A DNA stretch of 64,000 nucleotides, from positions 4,128,001 through 4,192,000 of the forward strand of contig OY760175.1 in NCBI GenBank assembly GCA_963663165.1, given 5' to 3'. Positions 50,303 through 64,000 of the stretch are shown piece by piece. Positions within the stretch are counted from its first letter, which is position 1. Every line of letters starts with the position of its first letter. This DNA is from an uncultured Desulfospira sp. Lineage in GTDB: Bacteria > Desulfobacterota > Desulfobacteria > Desulfobacterales > Desulfobacteraceae. The position numbers were made by a program, and so were the translations under genes. The notes under the pieces are model-generated. The model was not told where the DNA came from. It ran no database searches and was given only the letters and a program-made list of their open reading frames with translations.

Positions 50303-50403
50303 CGGACAGAAAAGCCGCGTGTAACGGATCATATTTTTATAATCTAACCAAGGGGCACCAGGCTTGATCTTAGAGCCAAAACAAGACGTTCCTCGGCACG
50401 GTT

Positions 50404-50586
50404 ACTAACGGCCACGGGCCGCCTTGGTTATCCAGCCAAGAACCGCCCACAACGAATAATGAAAGTCTTATCAGGATGTTAGTGAGACTTTCATATAACG
50501 GCCACGGGCCGCCTTGGTTATCCAACCAAGAACTGCCCACAACAAATATTGAAAGCACTCAACAGGTTGCTGAGTCTTTCATATAA
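50404..50586 (-). repeat. Tandem pair of mini-elements (~88-bp period)
   Basis: TTTCATATAA at 50489-50498 and 50577-50586; internal IR ATGAAAGTCT/AGACTTTCAT. Confidence 0.9.
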
Positions 50587-50626
50587 AAAAGTTCAAAATT
50601 TGTTTGCGGCCACATCTTGAAGCAAC

Positions 50627-51321: not shown

Positions 51322-52215
51322 ATCGGGTAGCCGGGGGTAGTTATCTACCCCAGACCCCCTCAGAACCGTACGTGACAGTTTCCCGTCATACGGCTCAAGC
51401 ATTTCTAAGGCTAAGCCTTGCGGGGCCGCCCGGTTGTTTGAGCAATAATGAAATTTACAGTCATTTCATAGCATGCGTCCTTGGGCATCGGCCAGGAAGT
51501 ACTGTTTTTTTTTCCTGGTCAAAGACATACGTCCTTTGAAAATGCCTTGGATGTAAATGCCGTACGCTCCTTTAACAACCTTTGCGATACGCATCTACAG
51601 TCTTTTAGCAGCATAAAGCTGCTGATGGGCGCACCAGCTAATGCCGTCATTTGCTTTCCCATCTTAAAAGATTCTCTAAACTCTCTCGCAAAGAAACACC
51701 TGCCCGGGTGTGTCTGTAGTCACACCCGCCGGACGTCAGCTTCCTTTCGGACCGGGTAATATCGGGGTTTTCTCCTCAACCCGTATCCACCTCATTACGA
51801 GATGGCCTTCGCTTTTTCCTGCATCTTACGCCCGCACCCCCATCAGTGTGCCTTGCGGTTTCACCTGCCGAATGTTCCCGGCGAAGATACGGGGTTTCCA
51901 CGTTCCACATTATTGCCGATTAATGGATGACTTAGGCCTGCCCACTGCACCGGCGGCGCAACATCTCACGCGGCAGTTCCGACACCTGCATCCTGACCAC
52001 TCACCTTTTGGTCCAAGCTTACCAGCCTCTTTAGCTTGTTCTCCCTGACGACGCTTAAGGAACATTCAATTAATTTGACCATATCATCCAAACCCTTGCC
52101 CTCACCCGGAATGAGGCTTCCAGGAGGGTATCCACCTCACGGCTTCCACCCCTTCCGCAACTGCGGAATTCGGTACTTTGTCGGTTGGGCTTCACACCGT
52201 TGCCGGATGCACCGG
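51322..52215 (-). mobile_element. ORF-less group IIB intron copy A (5' end lost)
   Basis: DV GAGCCGTATGACGGGAAACTGTCACGTACGGTTC, DVI, 3' AT; homology to the other copies stops at 52215. Confidence 0.9.
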
Positions 52216-53045
52216 CCATTGCCAGAACCATGAAACAAGTCAATGGATCGACCGGCAGCAAAATAAACTGTTTCATGGTGACTTTTACCTATCCCTGTCA
52301 GTTCAGAGATGTGGCATATCTGAATCAACGGGCAGTTTATTCTCTGATGTTTTCATGTGTATCCGGCACTTTGAAAGATTTTGGGCTCAACCCACGGCAC
52401 CTTGGTGCTCAGATCGGTATAACCATGGTCCTTCACACCAATAGCAGAAGATTGGACTTTCACCCGCATATTCACGTAATTGTTCCAGGTGGCGGTGTTG
52501 ATCCATCCAGACGGCAATGGAAAAAGAAAAAGGCAAGTATTTGTTTAACCAGAAAGCCCTGGCCAAGGTTTTCCGGGCACGTTTCCTGGATGGATTGAAC
52601 AAAAAAAATTTGCCGATCCCCAAAGGTGCTCGTCCCAAATGGGTTGTTGATTGTGAGAGGGTTGGAGCAGGTCTCTCTGCCCTGAAGTATCTGTCCAGGT
52701 ATTTATACAGGGGAGTGATCAGCGAGCGTAATATTATTGCCAACCAGAACGGTCAGGTTACCTTCAGGTATATTGACGGCAAAACCAAAAAAGTATGTAC
52801 GCGAACCCTTAACGGCGAAGATTTCCTGCGCCTGATCCTGCTTCATGTATTGCCCCGGGGATTTCGCAGGGCAAGGGATTACGGTTTTCTTCATGGGAAT
52901 GCCAAAAAAACTGCTCTTTCTGGTACAGATGATTCTCCACGTACGGATTACGGCAATAGTGCGTCGGCCAAGGCCTGTGTTTAAATGCCCCCATTGCGGG
53001 CAGCCTATGAAAATCCTGGGGATAAAACCTGCCGGTGCGGGATAG
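52216..53045 (+). pseudogene. IS91-family (Y2/HUH) transposase, 5'-truncated and frameshifted
   Basis: HCQ...W..RQ, HPHIH, YLSRYLYR, LHVLPRGFRRARDYGFL, CPHC spread over several frames. Confidence 0.88.
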
Positions 53046-53309
53046 GAAAAACAAAAGGTAGAAACCAAATCTCAATTTAACTGGAGGAGAGCAACTCTAT
53101 GAAATAATCCGGCTTTTTTTAGAAAGCCCTGAAAATGGCTATGCTACAGGTGCGCCTTATCTGCGATGTCCGGAAATCAAACTCCTTCCAGCCTCCTAAT
53201 CTCCAAAAAGATATTTTCATATATAGGGAAAGCCCGGTTCATTTTGGCCGGGCTTGTTCAACAATCGGATAAGATCGTGGTTCGTTCCTCACACGATCTA
53301 TCCTTATTC
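52216..53309 (+). mobile_element. IS91-like element remnant abutting an attC R'' box (53310-53316)
   Basis: Hairpin-rich end ...TCCTTATTC|GTTGTGT a few bases after the vapC stop. Confidence 0.65.
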
Positions 53310-53321
53310 GTTGTGTGAGTA

Positions 53322-53732
53322 TTATAGCAAGATTGTTTTGAATGCCTTTTTCCCTTTAATTCTGTAAATAGAAAAGTCACGGTCAATAGTCGCTACTTCA
53401 TTTATCCCCATTTTTTCAGCGAGTAGGACAAGACATGAATCTGCAAAATCCATTGGTAGATCTCGATACTTTTTAGTCAGTTCTTTGATCCTCTGAAAAT
53501 CTGAATTTAATACATTGACTATTTCAACGCCACCCCGACTGACCCATTCGATAAAATCTAACTGTGCATTTCGGTTAAAATCCAAAAGATGCAATGTTTC
53601 TGTAATGGATGCGATCGTGGTTATGAGTAGAGCTTGATTTGACTGGATAAATTCAACAGTCTTTTGATGGTATTTGTCTGAGGAATCAAAAAGAGCAATT
53701 AATGGCCCACTATCAATAAGAATTTTGTTCAT
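53322..53732 (-). CDS. vapC: PIN-domain toxin
   Basis: LIDSGPLIAL, MDFAD, TIDRDF. Confidence 0.9.
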   Translation of the reverse strand: MNKILIDSGPLIALFDSSDKYHQKTVEFIQSNQALLITTIASITETLHLLDFNRNAQLDFIEWVSRGGVEIVNVLNSDFQRIKELTKKYRDLPMDFADSCLVLLAEKMGINEVATIDRDFSIYRIKGKKAFKTILL

Positions 53733-53971
53733 TTTCTTTTTGCCTGGAGTTTGTTTTTAAGAAGCTCTTTCCTGTTTGAGGACAAATCATTCCGGCCACT
53801 AGCATATTTGCCGAATAAATCTTGACCAGATTCCCACGCACTTTTTGTTTCTATTTTTTTGAAATAATCTACAAGGCTTTTTCGGATAAGCTCGGACTTT
53901 GTTAAGCCGAGATTTTTTGCTGTATAGTTTAATTGCTGCTCAAGCCTTGGGTCAAGTCTTAGTGTAATCAT
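53729..53971 (-). CDS. RHH/CopG antitoxin
   Basis: MITLRLD...KSELIR; RBS GGAGG. Confidence 0.85.
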   Translation of the reverse strand: MITLRLDPRLEQQLNYTAKNLGLTKSELIRKSLVDYFKKIETKSAWESGQDLFGKYASGRNDLSSNRKELLKNKLQAKRK

Positions 53972-54035
53972 AATATCACCTCCGTAATACATATGGTAAT
54001 ACATCAAGACTAAAGAATCAACGTTCTTTTTTACA

Positions 54036-54870
54036 GTCGGGTAGGTCGGGGGGGCTTTACAGCCCCTTTCCCCCCCCTCAGAACCGTACGTGACAGTTTC
54101 CCGTCATACGGCTCAAGCATTTCTAAGGCTAAGCCTTGCGGGGGCGCCCGGTTGTTTTAGCAATAATGAAATTTACAGTTATTCCATAGCATGCTTCTTT
54201 GAGCATCCCCCAGGGAAGTACAGTTTTTTTTTCCCTGTTCAAAAAAACATACGTCCTTTGAAAATGCCTATAGATGTGCATGCCGTGTGCTTCTCTAACA
54301 ACCTTTGCGATACTCATCTACAGTCTTTTAACAGTATAAACTGCTGATGGGCGCACCAGCTATTGCCGTCATTTGCTTTCCCCTCTTCAAAGATTCTCCA
54401 GACTCTCTCGCAAAGAAACGCCTGCACGGGTGTCCCCGGCGAGGGTGCGGGGTTTCCACGTTCCACATTATTGCCGATTAATGGATGACTTAGGCCTGCC
54501 CACTGCACCGGTGGCGCAACATCTCACGCGGCAGTTCCGAAACCTGCATCCTGACCGCTCACCTTTTGGTCCAAGCTTATCAGCCTCTTTAGCTTGTTCT
54601 CCCTGACGACGCTTGAGGAACATTCAATTAATTTGACCATATCATCCAAACCCTTGCCTTCACCCGGAATGAGGCTTCCAGGAGGGTATCCGCCTCACGG
54701 CTTCCACCCCTTCCGCAGCTGTGGAATTCGGTACTTTGTCGGTTGGGCGTCACACCGTTGCCGGATGCACCGGTAACTGCATGCCACCTAGGGTGCCGGC
54801 AGGAGAATGCCGGGTTTGGTCAGGACCGACTGGCCCGCCAGACAGCCAATAATGCGACTTCGTGTCGCAC
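54036..54870 (-). mobile_element. ORF-less group IIB intron copy B (extra internal deletion near 54430)
   Basis: 5' GTGCG at 54870, DV/DVI, 3' AC at 54036. Confidence 0.9.
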
Positions 54871-55001
54871 CGAGAACGGGGAGCTGAGGGGCCAGGCTTT
54901 TGAACCCCAAAACTTCCGATAAAAAGTTAAGTTTTCCTGAACCAGAAACTCCCGATAAGGCCGCGCAGTAAGCTTGGTTCCTCTCCAGCGTTTTGTTGTG
55001 C
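54871..55001 (-). other. attC site
   Basis: GCACAAC-AAAACGCTGGAG...CTCAGCTCCCC-GTTCTCG. Confidence 0.85.
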
Positions 55002-55058
55002 AATATTTTTTCAAGCAAGCCGTCTCTCTTTCAAAATTGAAAATCAACTTATTTTTCC

Positions 55059-55087
55059 TTGCGCCATACGTCAATATGACGTATATT
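55059..55087 (+). promoter_or_regulatory. TA promoter with operator
   Basis: TTGCGC-17-TATATT; palindrome ATACGTCA-ata-TGACGTAT. Confidence 0.8.
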
Positions 55088-55093
55088 GAAATC

Positions 55094-55367
55094 ATGAATA
55101 AAGTTATTCTCCATAAACGAGTCCAAAAACAACTTAAGAAACTTCCTTCTCATATAGTTACAAACCTTGAAGTTTGGATGCAAACCGTTGAAGAAGACGG
55201 AATTTTTGAAGCTCGTAAGCTCTCTGGTTACCATGATGAGCCTTTGGGCGGCAAAAGAAAAAGGGCAGCGGTCTTTCAGGCTGTCCAAAGCATATAGAGG
55301 TTTTTACATTGAGCACAATGGCAATATAATTATAGAGGTTATTGAGGTGAACAAACATGAGTACTGA
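55094..55367 (+). pseudogene. RelE/HigB-like toxin, frameshifted in an A-run (~55254-55262)
   Basis: MNKVIL...GYHDEPLGGKRK then GQRSFRLSKAYR...EVNKHEY in another frame. Confidence 0.8.
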
Positions 55368-55653
55368 ATACGGCATTAAAGAATTAGAAAACGATTTTGG
55401 ACCTTTGACATTTGGCAAGGCTCTTGCGGCCCATAGAAAAGGCGAAGAAATGACCCAGAAGCAGTTTGCTGATTTTTTAGGTATAACATCATCCAGCCTT
55501 TGTGACCTGGAAAAAGGACGAAGAATACCGTCTGTGAAAAGGGCTGCTAAAATTGCGAAGGCCTTAGGAATGTCAGAAAAAACATGGGTTAAATTTGCCA
55601 TACAAGACATGATCCGTGAGGCTGAGCTTGAGTATACTGTGTCTGTCGCGTAA
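55357..55653 (+). CDS. HigA-like XRE antitoxin
   Basis: TQKQFADFLGI...DLEKGRR. Confidence 0.85.
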   Translation: MSTEYGIKELENDFGPLTFGKALAAHRKGEEMTQKQFADFLGITSSSLCDLEKGRRIPSVKRAAKIAKALGMSEKTWVKFAIQDMIREAELEYTVSVA

Positions 55654-55735
55654 TACATTTAATGTGTTATAGGCTTTCAATAAGGCCGACAAGTCGAACT
55701 TGTTGAAAGTTAACCATCTCCGTTTCGTTTCAAAG

Positions 55736-57668
55736 ATCGGGTAGGTCGGGGGCTTTACAGCCCCTTTCCCCCCTCAGAACCGTACGTGACAGTTTCCCGT
55801 CATACGGCTCAAGCATTTCTAAGGCTGAGCCTTGCGGGGCCGCCCGGCTGTTTTCTCTTGCCAATGCTGAAATTTACAGTTATTTCATTACATATTTTCT
55901 CGGCCGCTGTGACAGGGATCACCTTTGGTTTCACCCGTCTTGCCCAGTGGATTTTATCCATGAAGGCCTGCACATTTTTCCTGGATGGTTTAATGAGCAG
56001 TTTGCCGTCATACTTACGAATGTTTTGGCCCAGAAAATCGAATCCCCGGTCAATTCGGGTAATCAGGGTCTTTTCTTCAGACAGGGATAGATCCCGTTCC
56101 GAGAGAAATCTGATTATGGCCGGTTTGACCTTGTCTTCAAGAAGTTCCCGGGTTGCACCGGTAATAATGAAATCATCAGCATACCGGATGACGTTGATTT
56201 TGGAACTGATGTCCTTACCGTTGCGTCTGTCCCTGACAGGGGCAACAGATCCGGCAGTCCCTTCAATGCCGTCCAGAACCATGTTGGCCAGTGTGGGAGA
56301 GGCAATGCCGCTTTGCGGTGTTCCCCGGCCTGTTGGAAAGAATTTACCGTCCTCCATAAACCCGGAAGCCAGCCATTTGGTAAGGATCATCTTATCCATA
56401 GGGATATGGTCGATCATCCAGTCATGGCTGATTTCATCAAAGCAGGCTTTAATATCCGCTTCAAGTATCCAGACCGGCGAGGTTTTCTTGGCCAGTGTAT
56501 TAAAGCATTGGGATATGGCGTCCGCACATCGCCTGTATGACCTGAATCCGTATGAATTGTGGTCGGCCAGTGTTTCTGCTATCGGCTCCAATGCCAGTTT
56601 ATACAATGCCTGAACAGCCTGTCGATCATTGTGGGAATACTTAACGGACGTTTCTTGCCGTTCTTTTTGGGAATATAGATCCGCCTGAGCGGTGATGGCT
56701 GGTATCCTCTCCGTTTGAGGTTGCCTGCTGCCTGGAATTTCTTCCTGGCGGTTTTCCAGGTGACGTTGTCGACACCCGGAGTGCGTTTCCCTTTATTGGA
56801 GGTCACGCGTTTTACAGCTAACAGCTTTGCCTGGTAAGAGTGGGTCAGAAGCCACTGGAGGGCCTTGGCCCGTCCGTATCTTCCTTCTTTCACAGCCTTT
56901 GCGATACGCATTTGCAGTCTTTTAACAGCTTCATAAATGGCTTTCCAATGAATGGACTTCCAATTCCTGAAACTGCCGATGGGCGCACCAGCTGTTGCCG
57001 TCATTTGCCTTCCCATCTTCAAAGATTCTCCAGACTATCTCGCAAAGAAACACCTGCCCGGGTGTGCCTGTAGCCACACCCGCCGGACGTCAGCTCCCTT
57101 TCGGGCCGGATAATGTTGGGATGTTCTCCTCAATCCGTATCCACCTCATTACAAGATGGCCTTCGCTTTTTCCTGCATCTTACTCCCGCACCTCCATCAG
57201 TGTGCCTTACGGTTTCACCTGCCGAATACTCCCGGCGAAGATACGGGGTTTCCACGTTCCACACTATTGCCAATTAGTGGATGACTTAGGCCTGCCCTCT
57301 GTACCGGCGGCGCAACATCTCCGTGCAGGCAGTTAGGAAACCTGCAGCCTGACCGCTCACCTTTTGGTCCAAGCTTACCAGCCTCTTTAGCTTGTTCTCC
57401 CTGACGGTACTTACGGAACATTCAATTAATTTGACCATATCATCCAAACCCTTGCCCTCACCCGGATTGAGGCTTCCAGGAGGGTATCTGCCTCACAGCT
57501 TCCACCCCTTCCGCACTTGCGGAATTCGGTACGTTGTCGGTTGGGCTTCACACCGTTGCCGGATGCACCGACCACCGCATGCCACCTAGGGTACCGGCAG
57601 GAGAATGCCGGGTCTGGTCAGGACCGACTGGCCCGCCAAACAGCCAATAATGCGACCTCGTGTCGCAC
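55736..57668 (-). mobile_element. Group IIB (CL-class) intron copy C, RT with 372-nt deletion
   Basis: 5' GTGCG at 57668, 3' AT at 55736; near-identical to copy E. Confidence 0.93.
55809..57022 (-). pseudogene. ltrA: Intron RT/maturase: frameshift, loss of domain X, PQGG to PQSG
   Basis: Two ORFs (147 + 265 aa); 124 aa shorter than copy E. Confidence 0.9.
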
Positions 57669-57798
57669 CCGAACGGGGAGCTGAGGGGCCAGGCTTCTTA
57701 AACCCAAAAGCTCCGATAAAAGTTTAAATTTTCTTGAACCAGGGACTCCCGAGAAGGCCGCGCAGTAAGCCTGGTCCCGCTCCAGCGTTTTGTTGGCC
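57669..57798 (-). other. attC site
   Basis: GGCCAAC-AAAACGCTGGAG...CTCAGCTCCCC-GTTCGG. Confidence 0.88.
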
Positions 57799-57809
57799 CT
57801 TTAAAGTAT

Positions 57810-58187
57810 TCATTTGTGTTTAATGCTTTTCTTATATGTTGTAATTAACTTTGATATCATAGAATTAACATTGCAATTTTCATTATCTGCAAGATCATTT
57901 AACTTTTTAAAGTTTGAATCTGTAATGTTTTTGTCTAAAATTCTTACACTTCCATCGTTCCAACGTAGCACACCTCGACTATCAAGAATAAATCTATCAG
58001 GATATTGCTTTGCAGCCTTTTTCTTGGTTTCATTCCAAGCAGCATTTATTTCTCGAGTGGAAGATAGCTGCCCAACAAGACCTAAACGTAAAGTAACATT
58101 TTCTTTTAAATGTTCTGTTCCGTTCGGAAGTTCTGTAAGCTGTTCCAACATCATTTTCGATATTCTGCCTTTTGATAACATTGCCAT
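57810..58187 (-). CDS. Hypothetical cassette protein (~125 aa)
   Basis: ORF fills the cassette; start MAMLSK after the attC. Confidence 0.7.
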   Translation of the reverse strand: MAMLSKGRISKMMLEQLTELPNGTEHLKENVTLRLGLVGQLSSTREINAAWNETKKKAAKQYPDRFILDSRGVLRWNDGSVRILDKNITDSNFKKLNDLADNENCNVNSMISKLITTYKKSIKHK

Positions 58188-58212
58188 ATTTCCAATCCCT
58201 ATGATATTACGA

Positions 58213-58328
58213 GGCCAACGGGTAGGGGCATATTGCCGAGCAGGTTGTCGAAGCCAAGTTTTTTCGAAAACCAAGGGCTTTTGAAAAGCCGCTAGCCCCC
58301 CGGGTCGGCCTGCAGCGTTTTGTTGGGC
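58213..58328 (-). other. attC site (L' arm degenerate)
   Basis: GCCCAAC-AAAACGCTGCAG...CTACCC-GTTGGCC. Confidence 0.8.
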
Positions 58329-58333
58329 AAATT

Positions 58334-58687
58334 TTAATCAACTTCTCGTGGTTCAAGTAACAAATTAAGACCTTGCAATATTTCTTCAAAACGTTTTTTT
58401 GAAAGCGTCCCGATTTTTTCGGTTAGATCACTTTTATTGACTGTATAAATTTGCGAAATATTCACAACGCTTTTCTTCGGAATGTTTGCTTCACCTTTTT
58501 TAAGAGTTACATTTCCGGGTGCGCTGCCTAACCTTAAATTTGATGTGAGGGCACAAACAACGGAAGTGTTTATTCTACTTTGATTAAAAAGGTTATTTTG
58601 AATTACAAGATGTGGATGACGATAACCGGGTTCTGATCCTTGTGGCTCTCCAAAATCAATCCAATAGATGTCACCCTGTCTTACCAT
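58334..58687 (-). CDS. mazF: PemK/MazF toxin
   Basis: QGDIYW...GSEP...HPHLVIQNN...SVVNISQI. Confidence 0.9.
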   Translation of the reverse strand: MVRQGDIYWIDFGEPQGSEPGYRHPHLVIQNNLFNQSRINTSVVCALTSNLRLGSAPGNVTLKKGEANIPKKSVVNISQIYTVNKSDLTEKIGTLSKKRFEEILQGLNLLLEPREVD

Positions 58688-58926
58688 TGGTCTTTCACCA
58701 TTTTTTTATGTTTCGGGCGCATTTTTTGAACTAAAGAGTCTGCTTGTTGATCATCATAAATGTCGTTTAGCTGTTGAAGCAATTCAATGTTTTGATGACG
58801 CTGGATATACTCTTTGACTGCTTGTGAAAAGATATAACTTCTCGAGACATTTAAACTTTTTGCAAGAATATTTATTTTTTCAAAAATGGGCTTTTCTATA
58901 GAAATGGCTGTTTTTACATTCGGCAT
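58681..58926 (-). CDS. RHH antitoxin (ChpI-like)
   Basis: KTAISI...VSRS; overlaps mazF. Confidence 0.85.
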   Translation of the reverse strand: MPNVKTAISIEKPIFEKINILAKSLNVSRSYIFSQAVKEYIQRHQNIELLQQLNDIYDDQQADSLVQKMRPKHKKMVKDQW

Positions 58927-58951
58927 ATTGATTCCTCCATTATTTTTTTAC

Positions 58952-58980
58952 AGTATAATGTCTGGTATGAAAGACGTCAA
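58952..58980 (-). promoter_or_regulatory. TA promoter
   Basis: TTGACG-17-TATACT. Confidence 0.8.
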
Positions 58981-58990
58981 TACTTTGGTA

Positions 58991-59121
58991 GCCCACCGGG
59001 GAGCTAACCGGCCGGGCGTTGAAGCCACAAAAGCTCCGATAAAAGTTTAAAATTTCATTAACCAAGCTGCTTCAAAATGCCGCGCAGATAAGCCCGGTCG
59101 GGTTCAGCGGCTTTGTTCGCC
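58991..59121 (-). other. attC site (R' reads GGT)
   Basis: GGCGAAC-AAAGCCGCTGAAC...GTTAGCTCCCC-GGTGGGC. Confidence 0.82.
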
Positions 59122-59124
59122 TCA

Positions 59125-59460
59125 TCAGTATGCAAACAGTTCCTGTAAACAATTACAAACTTTAATTTGGGTAGTTTTTGAAATAACTCCAAACTTTTTG
59201 ACTAATCTTAATTTATCTACAGCTCTTATTTGATCCAATAATATCAAGCCTTTTTTACCTTGGAATGTACATTGAATTCTTGTGGGGAAATTGAAGCCTT
59301 TGGAGGTCATTGGGGCAACAATAGCCGTTTTTAATGAAGACATTTCGTCAGGAGAAATTACAACACAAAGCCTTTTTTTCTTTATTTCGTGACCTTGTGT
59401 CGGGTCCAATTGAACTAACCAAATGTCGAATCTGTTGATAGGCTGATTCACCATTCCCAA
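59125..59460 (-). CDS. mazF: PemK/MazF toxin
   Basis: LDPTQGHEIKK.R.CVVISP, APMTS, DQIRAVDK. Confidence 0.9.
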   Translation of the reverse strand: MGMVNQPINRFDIWLVQLDPTQGHEIKKKRLCVVISPDEMSSLKTAIVAPMTSKGFNFPTRIQCTFQGKKGLILLDQIRAVDKLRLVKKFGVISKTTQIKVCNCLQELFAY

Positions 59461-59702
59461 TCCTCATCATCAACCAGAGATGCATCCAACCATTCCTGGT
59501 CCAACTCCTCTTCGTTTTCTGCTTTAAGGTATTTTTCAAATTGTTTTTTCCACCCCTGCCTGGGTTTTCTGGATGGTTTTATTAACAGCCCTTCATCAAG
59601 CACCTTAAATTCCAGTTCTTTCTCATTAAGTTGTGCTTGTTCAATAATCGCTTTGGGAATTCTCACTCCTTGCGAATTTCCAATTCTTATTAATGTTGCC
59701 AT
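59448..59702 (-). CDS. mazE: AbrB/MazE antitoxin
   Basis: IRIGNSQGVRIPK; acidic tail DEDWEW. Confidence 0.88.
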   Translation of the reverse strand: MATLIRIGNSQGVRIPKAIIEQAQLNEKELEFKVLDEGLLIKPSRKPRQGWKKQFEKYLKAENEEELDQEWLDASLVDDEDWEW

Positions 59703-59787
59703 AAACACCTCTAATTTTGATTAATGTAATTACAACATAATCACTTAATTCTGTTTTTGTCAAATCAAAATCGTAGGTTTTTAGAAG

Positions 59788-60777
59788 ATCGGGTAGCCGG
59801 GGGTAGTTATCTACCCCAGGCCCCCTCAGAACCGTACGTGACAGTTTCCCGTCATACGGCGCAAGCATTTCTAAGGCTAAGCCTTGCGGGGCCGCCCGGT
59901 TGTTTTAGCAATAATGAAATTTACAGTTATTTCATAGCATATATCCTTGAGCATCTGCCCGGAAAGTATTTTTCTTTTTCCGGGTCAAAAGAGAACATCC
60001 TTTTGAAAGATGCCTCTGGCGTGTATGCTGTGTGCTACTTTAACAACCTTTGCGATACGCATCTACAGTCTTTTAACAGAATAAATCTGCTGATGGGCGC
60101 ACCAGCTATTGCCGTCATTTGCTTTCCCATCTTCAAAGATTCTCCAGACTCTCTCGCAAAGAAACACCTGCCCGGGTGTGCCTGTAGCCACACCCGCCGG
60201 ACGTCAGCTCCCTTTCGGGCCGGATAATGTTGGGATGTTCTCCTCAATCCGTATCCACCTCATTACAAGATGGCCTTCGCTTTTTCCTGCATCTTACTCC
60301 CGCACCTCCATCAGTGTGCCTTACGGTTTCACCTGCCGAATACTCCCGGCGAAGATACGGGGTTTCCACGTTCCACACTATTGCCAATTAGTGGATGACT
60401 TAGGCCTGCCCTCTGCACCGGCGGCGCAACATCTCACGCGGCAGTTAGGAAACCTGCAGCCTGACCGCTCACCTTTTGGTCCAAGCTTACCAGCCTCTTT
60501 AGCTTGTTCTCCCTGACGGTACTTACGGAACATTCAACTACTTTGACCATATCATCCAAACCCTTGCCCTCACCCGGATTGAGGCTTCCAGGAGGGTATC
60601 TGCCTCACGGCTTCCACCCCTTCCGCAGTTGCGGAATTCGGTACGTTGTCGGTTGGGCTTCACACCGTTGCCGGATGCACCGACCACCGCATGCCACCTA
60701 GGGTACCGGCAGGAGAATGCCGGGTTTGGTCAGGACCGACTGGCCCGCCAAACAGCCAATAATGCGACTTCGTGTCG
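59788..60777 (-). mobile_element. ORF-less group IIB intron copy D (first 3 nt absent at the junction with copy E)
   Basis: Full ribozyme homology, 3' AT at 59788, begins CGACACG. Confidence 0.9.
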
Positions 60778-63082
60778 ATCGGGTAGGTCGGGGGCTTTAC
60801 AGCCCCTTTCCCCCCTCAGAACCGTACGTGACAGTTTCCCGTCATACGGCTCAAGCATTTCTAAGGCTGAGCCTTGCGGGGCCGCCCGGCTGTTTTCTCT
60901 TGCCAATGCTGAAATTTACAGTTATTTCATTACATATTTTCTCGGCCGCTGTGACAGGGATCACCTTTGGTTTCACCCGTCTTGCCCGGAAGTATTGTTG
61001 ATGTTCCGGGTCAAAAGGATTTGCATCGCTTTTGATTTTGATGTGCCGTTGGATATGTATGCTGTGCGCTTTGATGAGTTCGGATGTTCTCGGGTTGCCG
61101 TTTTTATCTTTGACCACCGTTGAGAACCGCCCCGGTTTTGAGCCCTTTGACCAGTACGTCTTTTTCAACCATTGGATGCTTTTATTCCGGTGACGTCGTT
61201 TCACCCATTGCCACGCTTCATTCCATATGTACCCGTCAACATAGCTGAAAGTTTTTGCTGAGACAACATGTTTGTGATAGTTCGCCCAACCCCTTATTTT
61301 CATGTTAAGATCATGAATCAGAGCCTCGGCTTTCGATCCCCGGTGCTTCCTGAACGTCTCGTGGATTTTATCCATGAAGGCCTGCACATTTTTCCTGGAT
61401 GGTTTAATGAGCAGTTTGCCGTCATACTTACGAACGTTTTGGCCCAGAAAATCGAATCCCCGGTCAATTCGGGTAATCAGGGTCTTTTCTTCAGACAGGG
61501 ATAGATCCCGTTCCGAGAGAAATCTGATTATGGCCGGTTTGACCTTGTCTTCAAGAAGTTCCCGGGTTGCACCGGTAATAATGAAATCATCAGCATACCG
61601 GATGACGTTGATTTTGGAACTGATGTCCTTACCGTTGCGTCTGTCCCTGACAGGGGCAACAGATCCGGCAGTCCCTTCAATGCCGTCCAGAACCATGTTG
61701 GCCAGTGTGGGAGAGGCAATGCCGCCTTGCGGTGTTCCCCGGCCTGTTGGAAAGAATTTACCGTCCTCCATAAACCCGGAAGCCAGCCATTTGGTAAGGA
61801 TCATCTTATCCATAGGGATATGGTCGATCATCCAGTCATGGCTGATTTCATCAAAGCAGGCTTTAATATCCGCTTCAAGTATCCAGACCGGCGAGGTTTT
61901 CTTGGCCAGTGTATTAAAGCATTGGGATATGGCGTCCGCACATCGCCTGTATGACCTGAATCCGTATGAATTGTGGTCGGCCAGTGTTTCTGCTATCGGC
62001 TCCAATGCCAGTTTATACAATGCCTGAACAGCCTGTCGATCATTGTGGGAATACTTAACGGACGTTTCTTGCCGTTCTTTTTGGGAATATAGATCCGCCT
62101 GAGCGGTGATGGCTGGTATCCTCTCCGTTTGAGGTTGCCTGCTGCCTGGAATTTCTTCCTGGCGGTTTTCCAGGTGACGTTGTCGACACCCGGAGTGCGT
62201 TTCCCTTTATTGGAGGTCACGCGTTTTACAGCTAACAGCTTTGCCTGGTAAGAGTGGGTCAGAAGCCACTGGAGGGCCTTGGCCCGTCCGTATCTTCCTT
62301 CTTTCACAGCCTTTGCGATACGCATTTGCAGTCTTTTAACAGCTTCATAAATGGCTTTCCAATGAATGGACTTCCAATTCCTGAAACTGCCGATGGGCGC
62401 ACCAGCTGTTGCCGTCATTTGCCTTCCCATCTTCAAAGATTCTCCAGACTATCTCGCAAAGAAACACCTGCCCGGGTGTGCCTGTAGCCACACCCGCCGG
62501 ACGTCAGCTCCCTTTCGGGCCGGATAATGTTGGGATGTTCTCCTCAATCCGTATCCACCTCATTACAAGATGGCCTTCGCTTTTTCCTGCATCTTACTCC
62601 CGCACCTCCATCAGTGTGCCTTACGGTTTCACCTGCCGAATACTCCCGGCGAAGATACGGGGTTTCCACGTTCCACACTATTGCCAATTAGTGGATGACT
62701 TAGGCCTGCCCTCTGTACCGGCGGCGCAACATCTCCGTGCAGGCAGTTAGGAAACCTGCAGCCTGACCGCTCACCTTTTGGTCCAAGCTTACCAGCCTCT
62801 TTAGCTTGTTCTCCCTGACGGTACTTACGGAACATTCAATTAATTTGACCATATCATCCAAACCCTTGCCCTCACCCGGAATGAGGCTTCCAGGAGGGTA
62901 TCCGCCTCACGGCTTCCACCCCTTCCGCAACTGCGGAATTCGGTACTTTGTCGGTTGGGCTTCACACCGTTGCCGGATGCACCGACCACCGCATGCCACC
63001 TAGGGTACCGGCAGGAGAATGCCGGGTTTGGTCAGGACCGACTGGCCCGCCAAACAGCCAATAATGCGACCTCGTGTCGCAC
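60778..63082 (-). mobile_element. Group IIB (CL-class) intron copy E, full length (~2.3 kb)
   Basis: 5' GTGCG, DV with AGC triad, DVI, 3' AT; RT ORF in DIV. Confidence 0.95.
60851..62436 (-). pseudogene. ltrA: Intron RT/maturase without HNH endonuclease; single frameshift near 62032
   Basis: RVT_N (WKSIHW...RLQMRIAKA), TPGVD, PQGG, YADD, GWANYH, ANPFDP. Confidence 0.9.
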
Positions 63083-63209
63083 CACGACGGGGAGCTCAGC
63101 CGCCCGGAGCGAGAACCGAGAACTTCCCCAAAATTAAATTCTTTTCAAAAACCAAGGTCTTTCAAAAAGCCGATAGCTCTCCGGGTCGGCCTGCAGCGTT
63201 TTGTTGTGC
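63083..63209 (-). other. attC site
   Basis: GCACAAC-AAAACGCTGCAGGCCG...CGGCTGAGCTCCCC-GTCGTG. Confidence 0.88.
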
Positions 63210-63212
63210 GAG

Positions 63213-63951: not shown

Positions 63952-64000
63952 GCACAACGGGGAGCTCAGCCGCCCGGAGCGAGAACCGAGTACTTCCCAA
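63952..64000 (-). other. attC site, partial
   Basis: CGGCTGAGCTCCCC-GTTGTGC; complementary to GCACAAC at 63203-63209. Confidence 0.85.

Follow-up and report, generated by a model that had tools for sequence, protein, structure and literature searches.

How does a family of mobile introns come to lie, copy after copy, directly behind the recombination sites of an integron? This question is raised by a cassette array of an uncultured Desulfospira sp. (GCA_963663165.1). The window analyzed here is a stretch of 64,000 nucleotides (nt) of its genome (contig OY760175.1, positions 4,128,001 to 4,192,000), and five group II intron copies were found in it at window positions 51322-63082 on the minus strand, in the same sense as the cassettes. 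An earlier interpretation of the window, called here the sequence-only reading, had taken them for chloroplast-like (CL) introns that recognize integron attC sites by base pairing. The analysis strongly favors the explanation that these copies belong to a CL intron family of RNA subgroup IIB1, the homing site of which is the 3′ core of attC on the top, cassette-sense strand.

The copies were identified by ten Rfam matches that exceed the gathering score and fall within 51322-63026 of the minus strand, five of them with RF02012 (group-II-D1D4-7; 54-95 bits, gathering score 34) and five with RF00029 (domains V-VI; 60-72 bits, gathering score 40). Together with the minus-strand reading of the array, they bear out the five co-oriented copies on the attC top strand that had been reported before. 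RNA signatures of domains I-IV and V-VI are thus combined with an intron-encoded reverse transcriptase (RT) carrying a maturase (X) domain, as expected for a group II intron.

The RT scores 361 bits with TIGR04416 (group II RT/maturase equivalog, cut-off 300). The closest solved RT is that of TeI4h (6me0_C; E 1.5e-165, 555 bits over residues 8-490), while the scores are 128 bits for LtrA and 117-121 bits for class C enzymes. By bit score the RT therefore groups with a CL enzyme rather than with the mitochondrial-like (ML) or class C enzymes, and neither a class C RT nor an IIC RNA was found. In Pfam only RVT_N, RVT_1, and GIIM were detected and no endonuclease domain; nothing in the RT corresponds to TeI4h after residue 483. 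Domain V starts with GAGCC, which carries the AGC triad. TeI4h and the other introns of Thermosynechococcus elongatus are CL/IIB1 introns in the account given in PMC2882425. Judged by the RT match scores and not by a class-labelled tree, the element is assigned to CL/IIB (RNA subgroup IIB1), lacks an endonuclease and is not of class C. The sequence-only reading had reached this class from RVT_N and the AGC triad, and a grouping of the RT with class C, which would have spoken against it, was not observed.

In the 6.7-Mb genome the intron family comprises about 20 copies and fragments, most of them in three arrays (1.86-1.92, 4.18-4.19, and 5.54-5.61 Mb). The first intron nucleotide is kept in 15 copies, and 13 of these 15 intact 5′ junctions lie at an attC end, the distance from the G of the R′ core GTT being 6 nt in nine cases and 7 nt in four. 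The three intact 5′ junctions of the window are CTCCCCGTCGTG/GTGCGAC (copy E), CTCCCCGTTCGG/ (copy C), and CTCCCCGTTCTCG/ (copy B), where the slash marks the insertion point here and in the following; sequences and spacing are those given by the sequence-only reading. The remaining two copies, at genome positions 903578 and 2945506 (both on the plus strand), have no recognizable attC, yet their 5′ exons end in GTTCTGG/ and GTTCTT/. Sites with the exact sequence AGCTCCCCGTT occur 32 times in the genome, all of them within the three cassette arrays, and 9 of the 32 are occupied. The position of the junctions (13 of 15) and the confinement of these sites to the arrays exclude chance.

All 15 3′ junctions have a pyrimidine as the first base of the 3′ exon: C in 9, T in 5, and either C or T, depending on the reading, in one. 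Insertion is therefore clean and takes place at GTTRRR/Y. At least seven different TTRRR junction sequences were found among the copies. The copies are unlike one another in the attC subtype on the upstream side, in the TTRRR sequence and in the cassette that follows, which points to separate insertion events.

The pairing partner of this site was sought in domain I. The sequence-only reading had pointed to a loop with CCTAAC (62746-62751, minus strand) as exon-binding site 1 (EBS1), and the motif was found at this place, in the terminal loop of a domain I hairpin. Folding of the single domain I segment was no better than that of shuffled sequences (z 0.20) and hence uninformative, for which reason the relatives of the intron were used. 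In an alignment of their domain I, the loop was compared with the last six bases of the 5′ exon in 27 distinct pairs of intron and flank. All six positions form Watson-Crick pairs in 13 of the 27, and five of six in another 8; the rate of complete matches was 0.6% with random hexamers and 4.6% with flanks swapped among the same introns. Loop and exon change together: CATAAC is found with GTTATG/, CTAACG with CGTTAG/, TTAACG with CGTTAA/, TAACGG with CCGTTA/, CAACGT with ACGTTG/, and GCGAAC with GTTCGC/. Also the stem of the hairpin covaries across the relatives (GCAGG/CCUGC, AUGGGGG/CCUCCAU, GGUGG/CCACC, AAACG/CGUUU; here the slash separates the two strands). The sub-lineages cut 4, 5 or 6 nt past the G (e.g., GTTRRR/, CGTTAG/, ACGTTG/) and the loop is shifted accordingly, but in those homing to attC, EBS1 always has AAC opposite the invariant GTT. 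Two members of the clade that lie outside attC sites, L040 and L088 (L numbers denote loci of relatives), likewise show complete matches, GTATAG with CTATAC/ and CGTATG with CATACG/, respectively. From the complementarity that covaries with the site and from the covarying stem, the CCTAAC loop is identified as EBS1, which pairs with the R′ core. In IIB introns, a terminal loop of domain I typically contains a 6-nt EBS1 complementary to the final six exon nucleotides; this arrangement is present across the relatives, and the pairing is partial in the Desulfospira genome itself.

The relatives were collected by RT searches, which yielded 28 loci in 401 genomes belonging to the same order, 79 in species genomes, and 79 in metagenomes. 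The set of RTs with a support of 95 comprises 35 rows including the query; GTT occurs among the final 7 nt of the 5′ exon in 21, is absent in 4, and 9 have no usable flank, so that 21 of 25 usable flanks in the supported clade end in the core. Outside this set, 4 flanks with and 42 without GTT were counted. When GTT was mapped as a label on the RT tree, 8 changes were needed compared to a mean of 20.9 after shuffling, and none of 500 shuffles was as low. Of the four exceptions in the set, one has a degenerate core (CTTTAG/) at the end of its 5′ exon, and another lies directly behind a different intron.

The clade members come from metagenome-assembled genomes labelled Desulfobacterota, Chlorobiaceae, Bacteroidales, and Acidobacteriota, and relatives in other phyla with an RT identity of 50-73% occupy the same attC core with a matching EBS1. 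An IntI above the cut-off was found in four of five genomes of relatives that were checked, and intI was located at distances of about 4, 8, 15, and 41 kb from four of the introns, with side and strand as expected, assuming that the contig numbers match the records. The nearby intI in the expected geometry gives independent support that the flanks of the relatives are attC sites. There are exceptions, namely one Bacteroidales genome with six copies and no IntI, and one Acidobacteriota copy far from its only IntI. As far as can be read from these loci, attC homing belongs to a lineage and not to a single genome. A lineage that reads attC by base pairing had been proposed by the sequence-only reading; the clade and the covarying EBS1 of the relatives support this part, but copies of the Desulfospira genome fit their own sites no better than those of other copies.

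A combined tree with the metagenome loci was set aside as evidence. Since the clade in it was picked by the counted feature itself, its counts (25 with and 4 without GTT inside, 6 and 76 outside) are descriptive only and a Fisher test on them is circular. Repeats of the 5′ flank within the locus of each relative, which were also searched for, were obtained at only 7 of 70 junctions, two of them tandem introns; this approach is unsuited to heterogeneous arrays.

The anatomy, class, target position, EBS1 identity, and lineage-wide habit are established by the observations above, whereas splicing, mobilization in trans, priming and any role of EBS2 or EBS3 are deduced from what is known of CL/IIB introns. 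Transcription of the array in intron sense would produce the introns, and splicing would then release them from the cassette RNA. Intron RNA, including that of copies without an open reading frame (ORF), would be bound by the RT of an intact copy, and the resulting RNA-protein particle would reverse-splice into the top strand at GTTRRR/Y. Recognition of the site would depend chiefly on base pairs between the EBS1 loop (YYYAAC) and the R′ core (GTTRRR), with the invariant AAC opposite the invariant GTT; the preference for a pyrimidine as first base of the 3′ exon and a pairing of EBS2 (GGGAG) with CTCCC may help. As the enzyme has no endonuclease, cDNA would have to be primed by a nascent strand at a replication fork. 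An intact RT/maturase ORF of 526 amino acids was found only in copy F (genome 5573101-5575411), and the five copies of the window, which are defective or ORF-less, were probably mobilized in trans by its enzyme. The deletion end-points of a single ORF-less derivative recur in at least seven copies, which is reminiscent of the TeI3 and TeI4 introns of Thermosynechococcus (PMC2882425). An argument from replication strand was dropped: judged by GC skew, replication starts at around 4.0-4.3 Mb and terminates at around 0.76 Mb, and the three minus-strand arrays would not all sit on the lagging-strand template.

Several points weigh against homing to attC by base pairing. None of the 13 copies of the Desulfospira genome in which both loop and flank are available (alleles CCTAAC in 6, CTCAAC in 3, CGGAAC in 3, and CCGAAC in 1) pairs at all six positions with its own site. 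With only three to five of six positions paired, the imperfect pairing seen by the sequence-only reading holds for the whole genome, and the mean number of Watson-Crick pairs is 3.62 with the own flank and 3.60 with the flanks of other copies, the pairing depending on GTT/AAC and a terminal G-C. Four GTTAGG sites have no intron despite being perfect complements of CCTAAC; in three of them the next base is G, not a pyrimidine. Four of the junctions lie 7 and not 6 nt past the R′ G. The attC scores were our own and crude, no dedicated attC model being used; 15 of 70 junctions of relatives reached a control fraction of ≤1.5% in arm complementarity, and a free-energy test with constrained bottom-strand folds failed to separate the flanks from the controls, the 5% quantile of which (-20.3 kcal/mol) was as low as most true sites. 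The tree of 107 RTs is a FastTree tree only, in which one row of a tandem (L068_1, second intron) was labelled by hand. An exact-complement search for EBS2 gave a complement in a common alignment region only for the copies of this genome and in L039, L069, and L068, most relatives having no consistent complement. Finally, public-run contigs (four runs) over window 55500-57900, which are short and broken at repeats, contain no intron-skipping joint, empty site or spliced form. The imperfect fit may be due to relaxed specificity, to defective copies being mobilized by one enzyme, or to exchange between copies after insertion, and the empty GTTAGG sites fit a pyrimidine requirement at position +1 without proving one.

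Alternatively, one or a few ancient insertions may have been multiplied passively by integrase shuffling, array duplication or recombination between arrays, in which case the link to attC would reflect integron dynamics and not intron targeting. Since the insertion point lies 5 nt 3′ of the integrase crossover G/TT, an intron would be carried along by the cassette behind it. The same TTRRR-intron junctions recur after attC sites of different types (GTTCTCG/ at 1886142 and 4182870, GTTCGG/ at 1879647 and 4185668), deletions are shared between copies, and the pairing of EBS1 with its intron-binding site (IBS1) is not copy-specific in this genome. Shuffling alone leaves unexplained the seven or more different TTRRR junctions with different downstream cassettes, the two copies without attC that still follow GTTC (903578 and 2945506), and the relatives in other phyla at the same core with matching EBS1, and passive spread is regarded as highly improbable. 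The weak pairing could also mean that attC is recognized as a hairpin or single strand in the fashion of class C, with the short GTT/AAC pairing only fixing the cut. Three to five pairs are near the 3-4 bp given for class C in PMC7923331, the enzyme lacks an endonuclease, and a role for the hairpin was speculated on by Sonbol and Siam in the same paper. Relatives with full 6-bp complementarity that covaries with the site speak against it, as do L040 and L088, which keep a complete match where no attC is present; moreover, the R′ core must be unpaired in order to pair with EBS1. Recognition of attC as a hairpin or single strand is considered very unlikely.

Homing of the intron to the R′ core by base pairing, which is preferred here, leaves six of the seven R′ positions in place, with insertion 5 nt past G/TT. 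Therefore, an occupied site may still recombine, the intron then moving with the downstream cassette. This raises the idea of an intron that is a passenger of the integron and the RT of which, co-transcribed with the cassettes, helps to make or renew them; such a partnership of intron and integron across several phyla, instead of plain parasitism, is considered unlikely.

The second element proposed by the sequence-only reading, GGGAG (62811-62815, minus strand) as EBS2, lies where it had been placed and is the complement of the attC CTCCC at -12 to -8. Among relatives it falls within a hypervariable segment of 5-8 nt, about 60 nt 5′ of EBS1, which is flanked by a conserved CGUCA on one side and a covarying hairpin on the other. 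In L039 and L069, an adjacent ACAAGC pairs with GCTTGT at -13 to -8. The place is plausible, but complementarity could be demonstrated in few relatives, and GGGAG is kept as a candidate EBS2. A preference of IBS2 could not be derived from attC subtypes. Occupancy among candidates above the score threshold was 6 of 27 for CTCCC[CT], 1 of 3 for CTTATC, and 0 of 43 for all others; these counts are too small and the candidates too impure for this purpose.

In the full-text literature retrieved on group II introns with attC or integrons, chloroplast-like or IIB, one relevant paper was found. Sonbol and Siam (2021; Mob DNA 12:8, PMC7923331) reported a single CL1/IIB1 intron, UHB.I2, just downstream of an attC in cassette orientation, besides truncated class E introns in a cluster of attC sites lacking an integron-integrase (CALIN). 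As this intron had already been reported, the statement of the sequence-only reading that such introns were not described was too strong. Compared by its description only, UHB.I2 resembles the copies here in its IIB1 RNA, its CL1-type RT without endonuclease, its cassette orientation, its position directly 3′ of attC, and its array rich in toxin-antitoxin genes. It occurs once, on a metagenome contig, and has the ends 5′-UUGCG..GU-3′, whereas the family of the Desulfospira genome, with about 20 copies and fragments mostly in three arrays and with four EBS1 alleles, has GUGCG..AU. In the sections of that paper dealing with UHB.I2, the flanking exons of its homologues are described as poorly conserved, and neither a model of pairing with R′ nor a lineage is put forward. 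The association was therefore anticipated once in print, and the base-pairing mechanism and the clade are added here.

The known IIC-attC introns (S.ma.I2 and relatives), as presented in the parts of PMC4424553, PMC7923331, and PMC8876359 devoted to them, are of class C, insert into the bottom strand at TTGT/T in R′′, antisense to the cassettes, and use an IBS1 of 3-4 bp plus the stem-loop. They have in common with the present family that they are mobile group II introns with RTs devoid of an endonuclease and that integron attC is their natural target. In contrast, the introns described here are CL/IIB, lie cassette-sense in the top-strand R′ core at GTTRRR/Y, and have a 6-bp EBS1 in the relatives. 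A 2015 review of group II introns gives attC insertion as a specificity of class C, and a 2022 integron review names only IIC-attC introns in its available text. Among CL/IIB1 introns, the TeI4 and TeI3 families of T. elongatus are similar in that a few ORF-bearing and many ORF-less copies share one genome, that families differ in their EBS sequences, and that in both the fold gives little guidance on the position of EBS2 (PMC2882425, in its treatment of these families). TeI4h differs by its endonuclease domain and the introns of T. elongatus by their diverse sites (PMC2882425), while the RT of the present family stops after the DNA-binding region.

Insertion into attC had been regarded as peculiar to IIC introns, which read the site as a bottom-strand hairpin. 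That an unrelated second lineage reaches this site from the opposite strand, by RNA-DNA pairing to its only invariant triplet, is a clean case of convergence. Furthermore, a natural IIB intron with a target in every integron is of interest for targetron design.

The relatives provide further observations on sites. At L068:165-7539, three introns lie head to tail behind one attC (GTTGGC/intron/intron/intron), and in L088 the intron starts 6 nt past the 3′ end of another intron, these 6 nt being matched by its EBS1. If recognition rests on the 5′ exon, occupied sites could be hit again on the attC side. In a separate RT group (L053, L054, L056, L057, and L061), with an identity of about 51%, the insertion point is preceded by an attC-like inverted repeat and the 5′ exon terminates with GT/ or GTT/; the arm score of L057 (13.75) is reached by 0.07% of the controls. 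In these five loci no EBS1 complement was found in the expected region. They may represent a second attC-associated group. More distant CL relatives from gut Firmicutes (L082 and L084-L087) share one conserved coding site, ..TTCGACAG.TA.TC.TGG/, which is ordinary gene homing in contrast to the attC clade.

The integron itself is complete. The five introns lie within its cassette array, and IntI is encoded at genome position 4194663-4195604 (plus strand), 2.7 kb past the end of the window (TIGR02249, 456 bits, cut-off 265), diverging from the minus-strand cassettes. The introns are separated by cassettes with toxin-antitoxin pairs, namely RelE/HTH, MazE/MazF, RHH/MazF, RHH/PIN, and AbrB/PIN. 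Each of the cassettes ends in an imperfect inverted repeat of 115-125 nt with R′′ (..ACAAC) and R′ (GTTRRRY) cores, for which constrained folds gave -13 to -23 kcal/mol, and attC-like candidates number 73 in 155.7 kb of arrays compared to 18 in 150 kb of background. The R′′/R′ inverted repeat, the cassette array and the adjoining integrase identify these sites as attC, as read without a dedicated attC model. On the minus strand, the attC carrying copy E spans 63083-63210 (R′′ CGCACAAC, R′ GTCGTG/) and belongs to the repeat family of the other attC sites; the attC of copy C spans 57669-57798 (R′′ GGCCAAC, ending in CTCCCCGTTCGG/) and that of copy B 54871-55001 (R′′ CACAAC, ending in CTCCCCGTTCTCG/). 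An empty attC of the same family, with the R′ core GTTGTGC at 63952-63958 (minus strand), presents the unoccupied target CTCCCCGTTGTG/CGTTAAAAACC, the 3′ side of which starts with CG.

Copy E (60778-63082, minus strand, as are all copies of the window) is of full length with 2305 nt, from GTGCGAC at the 5′ end to CTACCCGAT at the 3′ end. Its RT/maturase ORF (60851-62436, minus strand) is split into two frames, with RVT_N in one and RVT_1 and GIIM in the other and no endonuclease domain, by the loss of 1 nt near 62020. The ORF-less copy D (59788-60777) starts at intron nt 4 and abuts the 3′ end of E in tandem. Copy E occupies the canonical GTYRRR/C position, the 3′ side of its site being the 5′ end of D. 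The sequence CTCCCC-GTC-GTG-CGAC has two readings, an attC followed by D with three bases missing, or D inserted 3 nt too early; either way it mimics an empty site (compare CTCCCCGTTGTG/CG). Copy C (55736-57668, 1933 nt) has the frameshift of E and a deletion of 372 nt in the ORF. Copy B (54036-54870) is ORF-less with an additional internal deletion and has the EBS1 allele CGGAAC. Copy A (51322-52239) is ORF-less and truncated at the 5′ end, starting at about intron nt 95.

The lost nucleotide in a G run of the RT gene is common to E (62020) and C (56617), and copy F and the copy at genome position 1887107-1888829 read through this position. The public-run contigs contain both the frameshifted form and a form with one extra base at 56617, so that the frameshift is real and was copied or converted between copies.

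At its truncation point, copy A is interrupted by a stretch (window 52185-53260) with two overlapping, frameshifted ORFs of a Y2-type transposase (52185-52984, plus strand; PF04986, E 3.5e-12 and 1.1e-29). Upstream of this interruption lies a short attC of another type (about 60 nt), which ends in GTTGAAC. Elsewhere in the genome, a second, broken integrase-like gene (5540264-5541065; 81 and 52 bits to TIGR02249, one internal TAA) was found on the edge of the third intron-bearing array. At 388063-388800, a 5′ intron fragment of 91 nt follows the attC-like end GAGCTTATCGTTATA/ and is directly followed by an array of clustered regularly interspaced short palindromic repeats (CRISPR) with the repeat GTTTCAATCCTTGTTGTGATGGATCAGTTTCCGGAGG. 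Finally, at the end of the array in the window (50380-50620), two tandem repeats of about 115 nt, both intron-free, end in GGCCGTTAT and GGCCGTTAG and look like ORF-less cassettes with another attC type.

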